From assembly GCF_001677475.2 (NCBI RefSeq), contig NZ_CP015229.1: DNA of 64,000 nt; one strand, written 5' to 3'. A program made the translations under genes and the position numbers. This document shows, one piece after another, positions 2,507 to 56,262 of this stretch. The notes under the pieces were generated by a model. It had not been told where the DNA came from. It was given only the letters and a program-made list of their open reading frames with translations, and did no database searches. Source of the DNA: Escherichia coli (GTDB taxonomy: Bacteria > Pseudomonadota > Gammaproteobacteria > Enterobacterales > Enterobacteriaceae). The stretch's first letter is position 1, and each line of letters begins with the position of its first letter.

Positions 2507-3154
2507 TTAGCTAATTGAAACGCCTTTCACCCCTGCCATACCTTTTAATAATCGCAACAGATCTTCTATCGACGTTGTGGCATGAAGCTGGATATCAATG
2601 GCGACCACTTCATGATCTTCATTTTCCTGCAACGAAACTAAATCAGTTTTTATTTTTTGCTGCTTAAACCAGTCGAGCATTGATACCGTATTACCGTTCA
2701 CTAATGTCAGCTGTAAATGGTAATTTTTGTTCATCAGGCGGAAGGTTAATTGATGGAAGACTTCCAGCACCAGTAAGGTCATCACTGAACCATAAATGCC
2801 CAGTTCGTACATACCGCTGCCAATAACCATACCAATGGCGGCGGTCACCCAGATATCCGCTGCCGTCGTCAGACCTACAATATTTTGGTTACGAACGAGA
2901 ATGTTACCTGCACCGATAAACCCGACGCCCGTCACCACCTGAGCAGCAATACGGCTGGGGTCCAGTCCGACGTGATCTAAAGACAGCACGTCAGCAAAAC
3001 CATATTTCGAAACAATCATAAACAGGGCGCTTCCCATGCCAATTAATACATGTGTGCGTAACCCTGCTCCTTTGCCGCGCATTTGCCTTTCCATGCCAAT
3101 AGCGCCACAGGCAATTGCCGCGAGTATAAGACGTATAATAAATTCTGCTGTCAT
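2507..3154 (-). CDS. yhiD: MgtC-family inner membrane protein YhiD, 215 aa
   Basis: Protein begins MTAEFIIRLILAAIACGAIGMERQ; start trimmed to that ATG (cat at 3152-3154 on +). Confidence 0.9.
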   Translation of the reverse strand: MTAEFIIRLILAAIACGAIGMERQMRGKGAGLRTHVLIGMGSALFMIVSKYGFADVLSLDHVGLDPSRIAAQVVTGVGFIGAGNILVRNQNIVGLTTAADIWVTAAIGMVIGSGMYELGIYGSVMTLLVLEVFHQLTFRLMNKNYHLQLTLVNGNTVSMLDWFKQQKIKTDLVSLQENEDHEVVAIDIQLHATTSIEDLLRLLKGMAGVKGVSIS

Positions 3155-3217
3155 ATAAAAATGCAAAAAGGAGCAGCAAGATGGCTCAACTTGCTACTCC
3201 TTTTTACTTGTACCTCA

Positions 3218-3544
3218 TTAATTCGGCAAGTCATTAGATGCTTGATTTTTGAAGGTATACAAATTTTTCTGCGGGTTTTTCTTGCAGTATTCGATCACTT
3301 TAGGAATTTGAGTGAGATCGGTTTCATTTAAAGTAACGGTATCGCCACCTTTATATACTGTTTCTTCATGCAGCATCCACCATGCAACCGGTGTCATTGC
3401 TTTTGGATTCAGATCAATAAATTCCTGGCAGGTCATATCTTTAGCGGATTCATTGGCTGCCAGCGCAGATTGTGCGTTCACCAGTGACAAAGCCGCTACA
3501 GCGCCCATAAAAATAAACGCTTTACGGAGAGATGAAATGTTCAT
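3218..3544 (-). CDS. hdeB: Periplasmic acid-stress chaperone HdeB, 108 aa
   Basis: Protein MNISSLRKAFIFMGAVAALSLVNAQSALA... recognised as HdeB; sits upstream-adjacent to hdeA on the same strand. Confidence 0.95.
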   Translation of the reverse strand: MNISSLRKAFIFMGAVAALSLVNAQSALAANESAKDMTCQEFIDLNPKAMTPVAWWMLHEETVYKGGDTVTLNETDLTQIPKVIEYCKKNPQKNLYTFKNQASNDLPN

Positions 3545-3659
3545 TTTGTAACCCATTCAATATAGAGATTATATACAAACAGGAGGAATAGCTGCTTTTA
3601 AAGAAGATATTCCGGCCTGTTCAATATGCAAGGAAATACAATGTAACGCATTCCCGGTA

Positions 3660-3992
3660 TTACATATCTTTCTTAATTTTGTCCCATTCGCCTTTAACTT
3701 TATCTTTAAAGCTGGCTTTTTTATCCTGAGTACAAGCCTGAACGATAGCTGGGGTTACGGTTGCAATACCCTGAACATCTAAAACCGCATCTTCTGGTTT
3801 ATCTTTGTTGTTCAGTGCTTCAGCAAAACCAACTGCAGTTGGCTGGAAGGATTCGTCCACAGCCAGGAAATCTTCACAGGTCCAGGAGTTGACCGGTTTT
3901 TTGTTATCAGCTGCTTTTTGTGCATCCGCTGCATTGCTCACTACTGGCAGAAGAAGCAGACCACCAAGAATAACGCCTAATACTTTTTTCAT
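3660..3992 (-). CDS. hdeA: Periplasmic acid-stress chaperone HdeA, 110 aa
   Basis: Protein MKKVLGVILGGLLLLPVVSNAADAQKAADNKKPVNSWTCEDFLAVDESFQP... recognised as HdeA. Confidence 0.95.
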   Translation of the reverse strand: MKKVLGVILGGLLLLPVVSNAADAQKAADNKKPVNSWTCEDFLAVDESFQPTAVGFAEALNNKDKPEDAVLDVQGIATVTPAIVQACTQDKKASFKDKVKGEWDKIKKDM

Positions 3993-4246
3993 CGTAATAT
4001 CCTCAACTATAAAGTGAAAGAGCCGTCACGAATCAATTTCGACACTGAGGTTATAACCTGGTTTTCTGTATATGTCATGTTGATGGAAAATATCAAAATC
4101 AGATATTTTTATTTCAATACAATGAGTTACAGATACATCAGATACTGTAATTAGGAAATTTTTATTAAATCGCCTGCATTCTTAGACGCGTTTTTGGCAT
4201 AGATTGATAGCAGGGGATTTTCTTCTTAATTTTATAGGGTGGTTCT

Positions 4247-4819
4247 ATGTTATATATAGATAAGGCAACAATTTTGAAGTTTGATCTGGAGATGCTGAAA
4301 AAGCATCGCAGAGCAATCCAGTTTATTGCCGTGCTACTGTTTATCGTCGGGTTGCTGTGTATCAGTTTCCCGTTCGTCTCTGGCGATATTTTAAGCACAG
4401 TAGTGGGTGCATTATTAATCTGCTCGGGCATTGCGCTTATTGTCGGGTTATTCAGCAACCGCAGTCATAATTTCTGGCCGGTATTATCCGGTTTCCTCGT
4501 CGCAGTCGCCTATTTATTGATCGGCTATTTCTTCATCCGCGCACCGGAGCTGGGCATTTTTGCCATTGCGGCATTTATTGCCGGTTTGTTCTGTGTTGCA
4601 GGGGTTATTCGCCTGATGAGTTGGTATCGTCAGCGTTCAATGAAAGGCAGCTGGCTACAGCTCGTTATTGGTGTGCTGGATATCGTCATTGCCTGGATAT
4701 TCCTTGGTGCAACGCCGATGGTGTCTGTAACTTTGGTTTCCACACTGGTGGGTATTGAACTGATATTTAGCGCCGCCAGCCTGTTCAGCTTCGCCAGTTT
4801 GTTCGTTAAGCAGCAATAA
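4247..4819 (+). CDS. hdeD: Acid-resistance inner membrane protein HdeD, 190 aa
   Basis: Hydrophobic 190-aa protein divergent from hdeAB; conserved position in the acid fitness island. Confidence 0.95.
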   Translation: MLYIDKATILKFDLEMLKKHRRAIQFIAVLLFIVGLLCISFPFVSGDILSTVVGALLICSGIALIVGLFSNRSHNFWPVLSGFLVAVAYLLIGYFFIRAPELGIFAIAAFIAGLFCVAGVIRLMSWYRQRSMKGSWLQLVIGVLDIVIAWIFLGATPMVSVTLVSTLVGIELIFSAASLFSFASLFVKQQ

Positions 4820-4837
4820 TTATCCCAGTTATCACCC

Positions 4838-4869
4838 GGATCATAGTCACTTGATGTGACTATGATCCG
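4838..4869 (+). terminator. Hairpin downstream of hdeD (cggatcatagtcac-ttga-gtgactatgatccg)
   Basis: 14-bp inverted repeat starting 19 bp after the hdeD stop; seen in sequence. Confidence 0.45.
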
Positions 4870-5235
4870 ATTAATACTCTCTCCACTACACAGCGTTGTA
4901 GATCAATTGCGCACTATCATTGAAATAATTACCTGCTGATGATTATTTCAACCTACTGAATTTCATCTGATTTTTTTCACTCCATGGCAAATTAGCCATT
5001 TCAAACATTATCATGGCTGATATTTTCCGTAGTCAGGTTTAATGTTTTAAAAGTGCTGTGGGAAAGTGAACAAAGAGTTCCGTAAGCGTTGATGCTATGG
5101 GCGGTTAAATAAGTAATCCGGGTTCATTTTTTTGCAACAGGCGTTGATTACATTGCATAAATATCCGTGTCTCCAGACGCTATATAAAAACCTGAAGACA
5201 TGAATGAGTTATTTACTCAGGTAATTTCAATGCGT

Positions 5236-5305
5236 TAAAAGAAAGCTGGCAATCCAATTGCCAGCTTAAGTCGAAACAAGGAGACTCGATATTTAAATCG
5301 GATTA
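5236..5305 (-). ncRNA. arrS: Candidate antisense sRNA in the gadE upstream region (ArrS-like); coordinates approximate
   Basis: Minus-strand intrinsic-terminator signature: perfect hairpin agctggcaat-cc-attgccagct (5244-5266) followed on the minus strand by a U-rich tract; an antisense sRNA is known in the gadE leader. The 5' end is not determined. Confidence 0.35.
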
Positions 5306-5617
5306 CATTTTAACTTTAGTAATATTCTTCAGAGATCACAAACTGGTTATTGATAACTTATTCTTGGGCAGTAATCCGCAAACGTTAACTTTTTGTTTAC
5401 TATTTACAAACTGATAACAACCAGGAATCTTACTTAGGATCAATATATGGAGTGCGTGATGGAGAAATCTGAAGTATTGATTAGTGTTAATAGACGTATT
5501 AGTTCACGAAGGGCAAAGTTCTTATAGGCGTTTACTATATTGAACAACGATTCGGACAAGGATGTAAATAATGAAAAGGATGACATGTTCGAAACGATAA
5601 CGGCTAAGGAGCAAGTT

Positions 5618-6145
5618 ATGATTTTTCTCATGACGAAAGATTCTTTTCTTTTACAGGGCTTTTGGCAGTTGAAAGATAATCACGAAATGATAAAAATCAA
5701 TTCCCTGTCAGAGATCAAAAAAGTAGGCAATAAACCCTTCAAGGTTATCATTGATACCTATCACAATCATATCCTTGATGAAGAAGCGATTAAATTTCTG
5801 GAGAAATTAGATGCCGAGAGAATTATTGTTTTGGCACCTTATCACATCAGTAAACTAAAAGCTAAAGCGCCTATTTATTTTGTCAGCCGCAAAGAAAGCA
5901 TCAAAAATCTTCTTGAGATTACTTATGGTAAACACTTGCCCCATAAGAATTCACAATTATGTTTTTCACATAATCAGTTCAAAATTATGCAACTGATTCT
6001 GAAAAATAAAAATGAAAGCAATATCACGTCGACGCTCAATATTTCGCAACAAACATTAAAGATTCAGAAATTCAACATTATGTACAAGCTGAAACTAAGA
6101 CGTATGAGCGACATCGTCACCCTGGGTATCACATCTTATTTTTAG
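5618..6145 (+). CDS. gadE: LuxR-family acid-resistance activator GadE, 175 aa
   Basis: Protein MIFLMTKDSFLLQGFWQLKDNHEM...; ATG at 5618 preceded by AAGGAG; the ORF-track start at 5540 is an upstream extension. Confidence 0.95.
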   Translation: MIFLMTKDSFLLQGFWQLKDNHEMIKINSLSEIKKVGNKPFKVIIDTYHNHILDEEAIKFLEKLDAERIIVLAPYHISKLKAKAPIYFVSRKESIKNLLEITYGKHLPHKNSQLCFSHNQFKIMQLILKNKNESNITSTLNISQQTLKIQKFNIMYKLKLRRMSDIVTLGITSYF

Positions 6146-6483
6146 TCAGGACATAAGCAACTGAAATTGATGGCTGGCATGACGAGGGATGCAGATGCTG
6201 ATTTCATTACCCCCGGTGATTACTAAAGGAGAGGTTAAAACGACTTTATTCCCCTGGTATGTGTATCCACCAGTAGAACCCTTCGTTGCCCGAATGCTGG
6301 CAGGAACTGTTGGCAGAACGGCAACATTTTTTTTGTCGTTGACCTCACCATGTCGATCACTATGCCTGTATCCCACCTTACTGGCTGACAACCCCACTAT
6401 GCCGCTGGTCTGTAAATCCCTCATATCTCTCCTCGCGCGCAATTTAAAGAACCGTTATTTCTCAAGAATTTTCAGGGACTAAA

Positions 6484-7641
6484 ATGAACAGAAGAAGAAA
6501 GCTGTTAATACCGTTGTTATTCTGCGGCGCGATGCTCACCGCCTGCGATGACAAATCGGCGGAAAACGCCGCCGCCATGACGCCTGAGGTCGGTGTCGTC
6601 ACACTCTCCCCCGGTTCGGTCAATGTATTGAGCGAATTGCCCGGTAGAACCGTTCCTTATGAAGTTGCCGAGATACGTCCCCAGGTGGGCGGTATTATCA
6701 TTAAACGCAACTTTATCGAAGGCGATAAAGTGAACCAGGGCGATTCGCTGTATCAGATTGATCCTGCACCTTTACAGGCCGAGCTGAACTCCGCCAAAGG
6801 CACGCTGGCGAAAGCGCTCTCTACCGCCAGCAATGCCCGCATCACCTTTAACCGCCAGGCATCGTTGCTGAAGACCAACTACGTTAGCCGTCAGGATTAC
6901 GACACCGCGCGCACCCAGTTGAATGAAGCAGAAGCCAATGTCACCGTCGCCAAAGCGGCTGTTGAACAGGCGACTATCAACCTGCAATACGCAAATGTCA
7001 CCTCGCCGATTACGGGCGTCAGCGGGAAATCGTCGGTGACCGTCGGCGCACTCGTTACCGCTAATCAGGCAGATTCGCTGGTTACCGTACAACGTCTGGA
7101 CCCGATTTATGTCGATCTCACGCAGTCGGTGCAGGATTTCTTGCGCATGAAAGAAGAGGTCGCCAGTGGGCAAATCAAACAGGTTCAGGGCAGTACGCCA
7201 GTACAGCTCAATCTGGAAAATGGTAAACGTTACAGCCAGACCGGCACGCTGAAATTCTCCGACCCAACGGTAGATGAAACCACGGGCTCCGTGACGTTAC
7301 GGGCGATTTTCCCCAACCCAAATGGTGACTTGCTGCCTGGCATGTATGTCACGGCATTAGTGGATGAAGGTAGCCGCCAGAATGTATTACTGGTGCCGCA
7401 GGAAGGCGTCACCCACAACGCCCAGGGTAAAGCAACGGCGCTCATTCTGGATAAAGACGATGTTGTGCAGCTACGCGAAATTGAAGCCAGCAAAGCCATC
7501 GGCGACCAGTGGGTCGTCACCTCTGGCTTGCAGGCTGGCGATCGGGTGATCGTTTCCGGTTTGCAACGCATTCGTCCGGGTATCAAAGCACGAGCAATTT
7601 CCTCCAGCCAGGAAAACGCCAGCACCGAATCGAAACAATAA
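6484..7641 (+). CDS. mdtE: RND efflux pump periplasmic adaptor (membrane fusion protein), 385 aa
   Basis: Lipoprotein signal (LTAC) followed by HlyD-like adaptor sequence; immediately upstream of the RND pump gene. Confidence 0.95.
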   Translation: MNRRRKLLIPLLFCGAMLTACDDKSAENAAAMTPEVGVVTLSPGSVNVLSELPGRTVPYEVAEIRPQVGGIIIKRNFIEGDKVNQGDSLYQIDPAPLQAELNSAKGTLAKALSTASNARITFNRQASLLKTNYVSRQDYDTARTQLNEAEANVTVAKAAVEQATINLQYANVTSPITGVSGKSSVTVGALVTANQADSLVTVQRLDPIYVDLTQSVQDFLRMKEEVASGQIKQVQGSTPVQLNLENGKRYSQTGTLKFSDPTVDETTGSVTLRAIFPNPNGDLLPGMYVTALVDEGSRQNVLLVPQEGVTHNAQGKATALILDKDDVVQLREIEASKAIGDQWVVTSGLQAGDRVIVSGLQRIRPGIKARAISSSQENASTESKQ

Positions 7642-7665
7642 CGTTGCAGGCTTAAGGGGACTTTC

Positions 7666-10600
7666 ATGGCTAACTATTTTATTGATCGCCCGGTTTTTGC
7701 CTGGGTACTTGCCATTATTATGATGCTTGCAGGCGGTCTGGCGATCATGAACTTACCGGTTGCGCAGTATCCGCAGATTGCGCCACCGACCATTACCGTC
7801 AGCGCTACCTATCCTGGTGCCGATGCGCAAACAGTAGAAGACTCGGTCACTCAGGTGATTGAGCAAAATATGAATGGGCTTGATGGCCTGATGTACATGT
7901 CTTCAACCAGTGATGCGGCGGGTAATGCCTCTATCACTCTGACCTTCGAGACTGGGACATCGCCTGATATCGCACAGGTTCAGGTGCAAAATAAACTGCA
8001 ACTCGCTATGCCTTCATTACCTGAAGCGGTGCAGCAGCAGGGGATTAGCGTCGATAAGTCGAGCAGTAATATCCTGATGGTAGCGGCGTTCATTTCTGAT
8101 AACGGCAGCCTCAACCAGTACGATATCGCCGACTATGTCGCGTCTAATATCAAAGACCCGCTAAGCCGTACCGCGGGCGTTGGTAGCGTACAACTCTTTG
8201 GTTCCGAGTATGCCATGCGTATCTGGCTGGACCCGCAAAAACTCAATAAATATAACCTGGTACCTTCCGATGTTATTTCCCAGATTAAGGTGCAAAACAA
8301 CCAGATTTCCGGTGGTCAACTGGGTGGCATGCCACAGGCGGCAGACCAGCAACTGAACGCCTCGATCATTGTGCAGACTCGTCTGCAAACGCCGGAAGAA
8401 TTTGGCAAAATCCTGTTGAAAGTTCAGCAAGATGGTTCGCAAGTGCTGCTGCGTGATGTCGCCCGCGTCGAACTTGGGGCGGAAGATTATTCCACCGTGG
8501 CGCGCTATAACGGCAAACCTGCTGCCGGGATCGCCATCAAACTGGCTGCCGGAGCGAACGCCCTGGATACCTCGCGGGCAGTCAAAGAGGAGCTGAACCG
8601 CTTATCAGCCTATTTCCCCGCAAGTCTGAAGACGGTTTATCCTTACGACACCACGCCGTTTATCGAAATTTCTATTCAGGAAGTTTTCAAAACACTGGTT
8701 GAGGCTATCATCCTCGTCTTCCTGGTCATGTATCTGTTTTTGCAGAATTTCCGTGCCACAATCATCCCGACAATTGCCGTACCGGTGGTTATTCTCGGGA
8801 CGTTTGCGATCTTGTCGGCGGTCGGTTTTACCATCAACACGTTGACTATGTTCGGGATGGTGCTGGCGATAGGGTTACTGGTGGATGACGCCATCGTGGT
8901 GGTGGAGAACGTCGAGCGTGTCATTGCGGAAGATAAGCTACCGCCGAAGGAAGCGACGCATAAATCGATGGGGCAGATCCAACGTGCGCTGGTCGGTATT
9001 GCCGTTGTTCTTTCTGCAGTGTTTATGCCGATGGCCTTTATGAGCGGTGCAACCGGGGAGATCTACCGCCAGTTTTCCATCACGCTGATCTCCTCCATGC
9101 TGCTTTCAGTATTTGTGGCAATGAGCCTGACCCCTGCCCTGTGCGCCACCATTCTGAAAGCCGCGCCGGAAGGCGGTCACAAACCTAACGCCCTGTTCGC
9201 ACGCTTCAACACGCTGTTTGAAAAATCAACTCAGCACTATACCGACAGCACCCGCTCGCTATTGCGTTGTACCGGTCGCTACATGGTGGTCTACCTCCTG
9301 ATTTGCGCCGGGATGGCGGTGCTGTTCCTGCGCACGCCGACCTCTTTCTTACCAGAAGAGGATCAGGGGGTATTTATGACCACCGCGCAGTTACCGTCCG
9401 GTGCCACCATGGTTAACACCACGAAAGTGCTGCAACAGGTGACAGATTATTATCTGACTAAAGAGAAAGATAATGTTCAGTCGGTGTTTACCGTTGGCGG
9501 CTTTGGCTTCAGCGGCCAAGGGCAAAACAACGGTCTGGCGTTTATCAGTCTCAAACCGTGGTCTGAACGTGTCGGTGAGGAAAACTCGGTTACCGCGATC
9601 ATTCAGCGGGCAATGATCGCGCTAAGCAGTATCAATAAAGCCGTCGTCTTCCCGTTCAACTTACCCGCGGTGGCTGAACTGGGTACCGCGTCAGGTTTTG
9701 ATATGGAACTGCTGGACAACGGTAACCTGGGGCACGAAAAACTAACCCAGGCGCGAAACGAGCTGTTATCACTGGCAGCGCAATCACCGAATCAGGTCAC
9801 CGGGGTACGCCCGAACGGCCTGGAAGATACGCCGATGTTCAAAGTGAACGTCAACGCCGCGAAAGCTGAGGCAATGGGTGTGGCGCTGTCTGATATCAAC
9901 CAGACAATTTCCACCGCCTTCGGCAGCAGCTACGTGAACGACTTCCTCAACCAGGGGCGGGTGAAAAAAGTGTATGTCCAGGCAGGCACGCCGTTCCGTA
10001 TGTTGCCGGATAACATCAACCAGTGGTATGTACGCAACGCCTCTGGCACGATGGCACCGCTTTCGGCCTATTCGTCTACCGAATGGACCTATGGTTCACC
10101 GCGACTGGAACGCTACAACGGCATCCCGTCAATGGAGATTTTAGGTGAAGCGGCTGCCGGGAAAAGTACCGGTGACGCCATGAAATTTATGGCAGACCTG
10201 GTCGCTAAACTTCCGGCAGGCGTCGGCTACTCATGGACCGGACTGTCGTATCAGGAAGCGTTATCCTCAAACCAGGCTCCCGCGCTGTATGCCATTTCAC
10301 TGGTCGTGGTGTTCCTCGCCCTCGCCGCACTTTATGAGAGCTGGTCAATTCCGTTCTCGGTGATGTTGGTTGTACCGTTAGGCGTCGTTGGCGCATTACT
10401 GGCCACCGATCTACGTGGCTTAAGTAATGACGTCTACTTCCAGGTTGGTTTGCTGACCACCATCGGGCTTTCCGCCAAGAACGCCATCCTGATTGTCGAA
10501 TTTGCCGTTGAGATGATGCAGAAAGAAGGGAAAACGCCGATAGAGGCGATCATCGAAGCGGCGCGAATGCGTTTACGCCCAATCCTGATGACCTCTCTGG

Positions 10601-14823: not shown

Positions 14824-15033
14824 TTCGAACTCCTTAAATTTATTTGAAGGCAATAAAAAAGTAGGATTTATCCGCAATGGAAGCAAGGCATTACAGGCTT
14901 AATTTAAATAACAAAATCCTAAGCAGAAAAACGACTTTTTATAATATAAACATTTAACATGATAATATTAAAAACAGACTTTATTATCGCAATAAAAATC
15001 ACCCGAACATTCCTGTTCGGGCGATTAAATTAA

Positions 15034-55929: not shown

Positions 55930-56262
<333 letters not shown>

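Follow-up and report, generated by a model that had tools for sequence, protein, structure and literature searches.

The window (the whole 64-kb stretch of DNA analysed here) carries an acid fitness island of the E. coli type at positions 3000-8000, in which hdeD, arrS, gadE, gadF and mdtE follow one another in the order found in E. coli K-12. The hdeD-gadE intergenic region is 798 bp long, as in K-12, and shares 99.2% identity with the best-matching one of 5,426 complete E. coli genomes. Because this region is ~98% identical to that of K-12, and because 12 kb from another part of the window share 98.8% identity with the best-matching complete E. coli genome, the host is, judging from these identities, an E. 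coli or Shigella lineage other than K-12. The genes, open reading frames (ORFs) and gadE transcript features of the island are as follows.

3218-3556, minus strand: hdeB.
3660-3992, minus strand: hdeA.
4247-4819, plus strand: hdeD.
5052-5617, plus strand: 5' UTR of the longest gadE transcript (T3, starting at -566; PMC3708157), the cis target of the small RNA ArrS, with its segment 5237-5306 perfectly complementary to ArrS.
5294-5301, plus strand: 5' ends of gadE transcript T2 (-324/-317; PMC3708157), within the ArrS-complementary segment and 6-13 nt from the ArrS 5' end.
5440-5631, minus strand: ORF of 63 aa with no Pfam match above threshold, unannotated in K-12.
5618-6145, plus strand: gadE coding sequence (ATG at 5618, stop at 6145), the cis-regulated gene, identified from its ORF and translation and annotated as gadE in matched genomes.
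6146-6442, minus strand: ORF of 98 aa with no Pfam match above threshold, unannotated in K-12, with a PGAP 'hypothetical protein' at this position in some strains.
6263-6334, plus strand: GadF small RNA (gadF, b4718 in K-12) in the gadE-mdtE spacer, a full-length match to Rfam ES205 (105 bits, E = 1.6e-18).
From 6484, plus strand: mdtE.
From 7666, plus strand: mdtF.

The minus-strand ORF at 6146-6442 is antisense to GadF. The ES205 match is the only real Rfam match nearby, and mir-761 matches at 3164-3206 were set aside as chance matches to a palindrome. Downstream of hdeD, 21 nt past its stop codon, lies a perfect 11-bp palindrome (ATCATAGTCAC-TTGAT-GTGACTATGAT, 4840-4866) that has no T-run on either strand and is poorly conserved across Escherichia genomes; it may be a stabilising hairpin at the hdeD 3' end or a protein-binding site.

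Outside the island, a direct duplication of ~107 nt is found at 55930-56036 and 56098-56205. It carries a perfect palindrome (AAAAGCCTGCTCGCTGAGCAGGCTTTT, at 55985-56011 and 56153-56179) and the 3' end of tRNA-Pro(CGG), of which an intact copy lies at 56186-56262 on the minus strand, the first duplication copy keeping the 3' tRNA fragment only. The layout of the duplication suggests an att-type scar left by an element that integrated at proK. The segment 20000-32000 has a median of 36 matching places per E. coli genome, from which we conclude that a short dispersed repeat, of REP/BIME or IS-like type, lies within it.

Within the hdeD-gadE intergenic region, positions 5243-5267 form a perfect palindrome with an 11-bp stem, including a flanking A/T pair, and a 3-nt loop. 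The stem arms are AGCTGGCAAT at 5244-5253 and ATTGCCAGCT at 5257-5266, and the loop is CCA (5254-5256); the original prediction, which was made from the letters of this DNA, correctly described the hairpin as perfect but gave its loop as CC. The folding energy (-15.0 kcal/mol) is equal on both strands. Past the stem, the minus strand continues with TCTTTTAACG (T-run TCTTTTAA) and the plus strand with AAGTCGAAAC, which makes the T-run exclusive to the minus strand. The hairpin thus combines a G+C-containing stem-loop with a direct U-run on the transcribed strand, as an intrinsic terminator does. A terminator scan of 4700-5800 returned two sites (versus 0.7 +/- 0.9 in shuffled sequences) and the hairpin was the sole strong match, with 11 pairs, 5 of them G-C, and 5 T among the 8 nt after the stem on the minus strand. 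The 64-kb window has 8 distinct sites (16 nested counts) with perfect stems of at least 10 bp and loops of 3-8 nt, whereas ~0.5 would be expected from dinucleotide shuffles. Both the sequence and the scan therefore confirm the earlier claim of an intergenic hairpin with a U-tract on the minus strand only.

Comparison of the minus strand at 5237-5306 with arrS (b4704) of E. coli K-12 MG1655 showed that 70 of 70 nucleotides are identical. In K-12, arrS is annotated as an ncRNA on the minus strand between hdeD and gadE (NC_000913.3, 3657985..3658054). The original prediction had proposed a short antisense RNA ending at the terminator, perhaps ArrS, and had named alignment to the published ArrS beforehand as the test. 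Annotated arrS maps exactly to 5237-5306 on the predicted strand, and not elsewhere in the leader, which supports the proposal; the range first given, 5236-5305, picked out the right gene with coordinates one base off. We are highly confident that the minus strand at 5237-5306 is arrS and that the hairpin at 5243-5267, together with its U-tail, is the Rho-independent terminator of ArrS. The RNA and the elements that we assign to it, all read on the minus strand, are listed here.

5237-5306, minus strand: arrS, encoding the 70-nt ArrS small RNA GTAATCCGATTTAAATATCGAGTCTCCTTGTTTCGACTTAAGCTGGCAATTGGATTGCCAGCTTTCTTTT (100% identity to b4704).
5237-5242, minus strand: 3' U-rich tail UCUUUU (CUUUCUUUU with the last stem bases), read from the sequence, with the annotated 3' end at 5237.
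5243-5267, minus strand: Rho-independent terminator stem-loop of ArrS, with an 11-bp stem (AAGCUGGCAAU / AUUGCCAGCUU) and the loop UGG (5254-5256), from the terminator scan and the fold.
5297-5306, minus strand: single-stranded 5' seed GUAAUCCGAU, unpaired or marginally paired in the fold.
5313-5319, minus strand: putative -10 element cTAAAGT (-13 to -7), placed by its position relative to the annotated +1.
5336-5341, minus strand: putative -35 element TTGTGA, followed by a 17-nt spacer and identical in 9 of 9 aligned sequences.
5349-5365, minus strand: invariant upstream block AAGAATAAGTTATCAAT (-59 to -43), identical in 9 of 9 Escherichia sequences and flanked by variable sequence.

ArrS in this genome is thus an already known sRNA, and its identification is correct but not new. 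It shares with its K-12 counterpart the 70-nt sequence, position, strand, terminator, promoter region and cfa-pairing seed, and the RNA itself shows no difference, whereas the surrounding intergenic region is ~98% identical. ArrS was reportedly described in 2011 and has been studied since then both as a cis regulator of gadE and as a trans regulator of cfa and fepA. A search of 5237-5306 against Rfam 15 gave no family match at E <= 1; this null result is not evidence against the identity of the RNA because it is consistent with Rfam 15 having no ArrS model. PGAP leaves the arrS locus without annotation in the other genomes listed.

The transcript ends used here come from the RefSeq annotation and from secondary citations that give a length of 68-70 nt. 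The position of the 5' end at G 5306 is supported, because the annotation, the conserved spacing of the -35 and -10 elements and the published numbering of a base pair between ArrS C7 and cfa G-101 (see below) all agree. The U-rich tail at 5237-5242 forms the 3' end of the transcript and is expected to serve as its Hfq-binding tail.

Upstream of the 5' end, TTGTGA-N17-cTAAAGT may constitute a promoter of the σS type for ArrS. The nucleotides C-13, T-12, A-11 and T-7 of the -10 element are unchanged in 9 Escherichia sequences, and a C at -13 is a hallmark of σS promoters. The -35/-10 pair matches the consensus at 8 of 12 positions, against a promoter-scan cut-off of 9 of 12. The invariant block at 5349-5365 is a candidate site for the activator GadE and resembles a GAD box only loosely, with 11 of 20 consensus positions matched by hand count. 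A scan of the hdeD-gadE intergenic region with the 20-mer GAD-box consensus (TTAGGATTTTGTTATTTAAA) gave best scores of 12-13 of 20 and detected no strong box near arrS. The same consensus is matched perfectly (20 of 20) at 14903-14922 on the minus strand, presumably at the gadA promoter box, and this match served as the scan's positive control.

Relative to the gadE ATG, ArrS spans -381 to -312. The published gadE start sites, at -566 (T3), -324/-317 (T2), -124 (T1) and -21 (PMC3708157), correspond in the window to 5052, 5294/5301, 5494 and 5597, respectively (ATG at 5618). From these mapped positions it follows that T3 contains the full complement of ArrS and that the T2 5' ends fall inside it.

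We examined the conservation of the locus at two depths. Among complete E. coli genomes, arrS is present in 5411 of 5426, with at least 99% identity in 4095 and 95-99% identity in the rest. Species-representative genomes were scanned with the stem pattern, leaving the loop free, which returned 47 loci. Six of these are Escherichia loci, from E. albertii, E. whittamii, two unnamed Escherichia species and two divergent 'E. coli'. Forty of the 47 have no similarity to the intergenic region, look like unrelated palindromes from other phyla and were discarded. A further locus, on an 8.6-kb contig assigned to 'Flavobacterium paronense' CECT 8460 (NZ_JAUFQN010000010.1), matches the E. coli hdeD-gadE intergenic region along the whole of its length at 97% identity, and from this identity the contig is almost certainly an E. 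coli contaminant in the Flavobacterium assembly.

Across these six divergent genomes of Escherichia, identity to the window averages 0.974 for ArrS and 0.893 for the 61-nt promoter, but falls to 0.331 over the 70 nt past the 3' end. This comparison set was chosen by exact stem match, so that invariance of the stem is partly a matter of construction and species with diverged stems are missed. The loop is UGG in 10 of 10 sequences although the search pattern left it free, and the first 8 nt of ArrS are unchanged in 10 of 10 Escherichia sequences. The T3 leader at 5100-5236 is the least conserved stretch of the intergenic region, with 31-56% identity and indels. A second conserved island at 4995-5064, with near-complete identity across genomes, surrounds the T3 start (-566 = 5052).

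In the genome of E. coli AH21H052 (NZ_CP196264.1, locus ~966-1570), identity to other strains stops within the ArrS U-tail, after CTTTCTT, and the annotation places a gene for an IS200C-family transposase ~140 nt beyond that point (locus 1112-1570). From this arrangement it looks like an IS insertion has shortened the ArrS tail and displaced the remainder of the gadE leader. The strain would offer a natural setting in which to examine how ArrS terminates and binds Hfq.

The terminator is the dominant element in the minimum-energy fold of ArrS (z-score -2.4), and the 5' segment before it forms a single weak hairpin of 4 bp. In E. albertii, a 3-nt deletion removes pairs from the first small hairpin (nt 7-20). 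The second (nt 21-38), seen in the single-sequence fold, is lost in the consensus fold, and natural substitutions break or weaken its pairs. Substitutions at predicted paired positions occur in only two columns, 19 (in the small 5' hairpin) and 41 (at the terminator stem base). Both change an A-U or G-C pair into G-U in ArrS, whereas on the sense strand they would yield A-C mismatches. Double-sided covariation was not detected in the alignment of 10 ArrS sequences.

We used the published trans target cfa to examine the 5' seed. Nucleotides 1-10 of ArrS form 10 bp with positions -105 to -94 of K-12 cfa at -12.8 kcal/mol, placing C7 opposite G-101; the K-12 sequence was used because the window does not include the cfa of this strain. 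The changes C7G in ArrS and G101C in cfa are compensatory mutations (PMC6755755), and because the seed reproduces this published C7/G-101 register, the annotated 5' end of ArrS is further supported. A whole-length RNAduplex run of ArrS against the cfa leader was uninformative, since shuffled ArrS scored equally, whereas the seed-only run gave the published pairing.

Several published observations bear on how ArrS acts in K-12. ArrS is antisense to the longest gadE transcript, is induced via σS and GadE, and activates cfa by pairing at the site used by RydC (PMC6755755). In the conditions used, deletion of arrS gave no phenotype for acid survival or for cfa (PMC6755755). Overproduction of ArrS converts T3 into the more stable T2 form (PMC6872547), and direct ArrS-guided cleavage of T3 by RNase III is a proposed step in this processing. 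In RIL-seq, ArrS behaves as a trans-acting sRNA that depends on Hfq, and acid-response genes are enriched among its partners (PMC5145812). Repression of fepA by ArrS requires Hfq, RNase E and the terminator loop, mutation of which abolishes repression (PMC11979758).

Might the hairpin mark something other than the end of a discrete sRNA? A terminator halts any polymerase that reaches it, and a same-strand ORF that is annotated in some RefSeq genomes lies ~840 nt upstream, so the hairpin could mainly terminate longer antisense transcripts arising within or beyond gadE, for instance from the ORF at 6146-6442. The original prediction had stated that no minus-strand gene lies upstream; this holds for the K-12 annotation and for Pfam, but not for those strains in which PGAP places a 'hypothetical protein' at the second ORF. 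However, this ORF has no Pfam match, is antisense to GadF and is absent from the curated K-12 annotation. Moreover, the annotated 5' end of ArrS coincides exactly with the position of a conserved -35/-10 pair, the limits of conservation coincide with promoter and terminator, and a short ArrS RNA has been detected by Northern blot and RIL-seq (PMC11979758, PMC5145812). We therefore regard a main role of the hairpin in ending longer transcripts as highly unlikely. Even less credible is that the palindrome is a structure of the sense T3 leader, such as a stabilising hairpin or nuclease site, and resembles a minus-strand terminator only incidentally. The hairpin would fold equally well in the sense RNA (-15.0 kcal/mol), and its position is inside the T3 5' UTR, shortly before the T2 5' ends. 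Nevertheless, the plus strand has no U-tract, the natural substitutions at paired positions keep pairing, as G-U, in the minus-strand RNA only, and the ArrS transcript is documented in the literature. In addition, conservation within the region is lowest in the leader directly upstream on the sense strand (5100-5236), where a sense structure would predict otherwise.

At the DNA level, the palindrome resembles on both strands a σ54-like -24/-12 core, TGGCAA-N5-TTGCC (GG-N10-GC); the σ54 promoter context is TGGCAC-N5-TTGCW, with GG at -24 and GC at -12. In the 64-kb window, TGGCA-N6-TTGC is matched only twice, once on each strand of this palindrome, and rpoN is known to influence GAD acid resistance, reportedly by an indirect route. 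Yet two matches compare with 1.33 expected, 38 of 100 shuffles did as well or better, palindromes of the TGGCAA..TTGCCA type match both strands automatically, and 3 of the 12 consensus positions in the core are mismatched. The main text of a σ54 ChIP-seq study (PMC4591121) and that of an RpoN genomic-SELEX study (PMC8743547) mention none of gadE, hdeD and arrS. With a motif count not above chance and the locus absent from the main text of both studies, we dropped a σ54 site as unsupported and give it almost no chance of being what the palindrome represents. A second, DNA-level role for the ArrS palindrome alongside its role in the RNA, with σ54 holoenzyme or another dimeric protein binding both strands in the 'sensory integration' region of gadE, is likewise exceedingly doubtful; were it true, the absolute invariance of the palindrome, UGG loop included, among the Escherichia sequences recovered would go beyond the requirements of the RNA. 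A different question is whether ArrS acts on gadE mainly by transcriptional interference, through convergent collision or occlusion of P2, instead of RNA-RNA pairing. The predicted ArrS promoter (5313-5341) would fire head-on into T3 transcription, and the body of ArrS overlaps the stretch leading up to the T2 5' ends. However, plasmid-borne ArrS supplied in trans raises acid resistance (PMC6755755) and shifts T3 to T2 (PMC6755755, PMC6872547), and an RNase III-dependent cleavage site has been mapped in ArrS itself (PMC6212723). Because ArrS works when supplied in trans and carries this site, a mechanism at the RNA level is favoured; interference as the main mode of action is very unlikely, although it is possible as a side effect.

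On the reading favoured here, ArrS transcription would begin at G 5306 from the putative σS-type promoter TTGTGA-N17-cTAAAGT, which would be turned on in acid and in stationary phase via σS and GadE, as published for K-12. ArrS would then pair with positions -381 to -312 of T3, the longest gadE mRNA, to form a 70-bp duplex, and RNase III-dependent processing of this duplex would yield a shorter, more stable, T2-like gadE mRNA. The level of GadE would rise and, as GadE activates arrS, a positive loop would result. In trans and together with Hfq, the 5' seed GUAAUCCG is predicted to pair with the cfa leader around -101 and to mask an RNase E site, by which cfa would be activated, and the UGG terminator loop would be needed for the Hfq- and RNase E-dependent repression of fepA. 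Of these elements, the identity, position and terminator of ArrS, its promoter-like elements, its seed complementarity and its conservation have their basis in the present analysis, and the regulation, the involvement of RNase III and Hfq and the effects on cfa and fepA are taken from the K-12 literature.

ArrS resembles several other small RNAs in parts of this behaviour. GadY, encoded at gadX-gadW in the same acid fitness island, is likewise a short cis-antisense RNA belonging to the GAD regulon, and it too associates with Hfq and acts in trans (PMC5145812), but it differs in sequence and locus and overlaps the gadX 3' UTR, not a 5' leader. RydC shares with ArrS its binding site in the long cfa 5' UTR, where it likewise activates cfa by masking an RNase E site, but it is unrelated in sequence and locus and acts purely in trans; deletion of rydC has an acid phenotype whereas deletion of arrS has none (PMC6755755). 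The 3' terminator modules of SdsR and RseX share with ArrS the need for the terminator loop in Hfq- and RNase E-dependent repression of fepA (PMC11979758), although their loop sequences and genes are different, and for none of them was base pairing with fepA demonstrable. GadF (ES205) shares the operon neighbourhood of ArrS and is Hfq-dependent with acid-response targets that include cfa (PMC5145812), but it is a sense-strand RNA processed from the gadE mRNA 3' UTR and not an antisense primary transcript.

The recovery of ArrS from raw sequence shows that a real sRNA could be found to within one base. It also has value for annotation, as arrS was missed by the NCBI pipeline in the genomes listed and Rfam 15 gave no match here. 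At this locus the conserved unit is bounded sharply by the promoter and terminator of ArrS, and the adjacent gadE leader is free to vary. Such bounded conservation would be expected from selection on ArrS itself.
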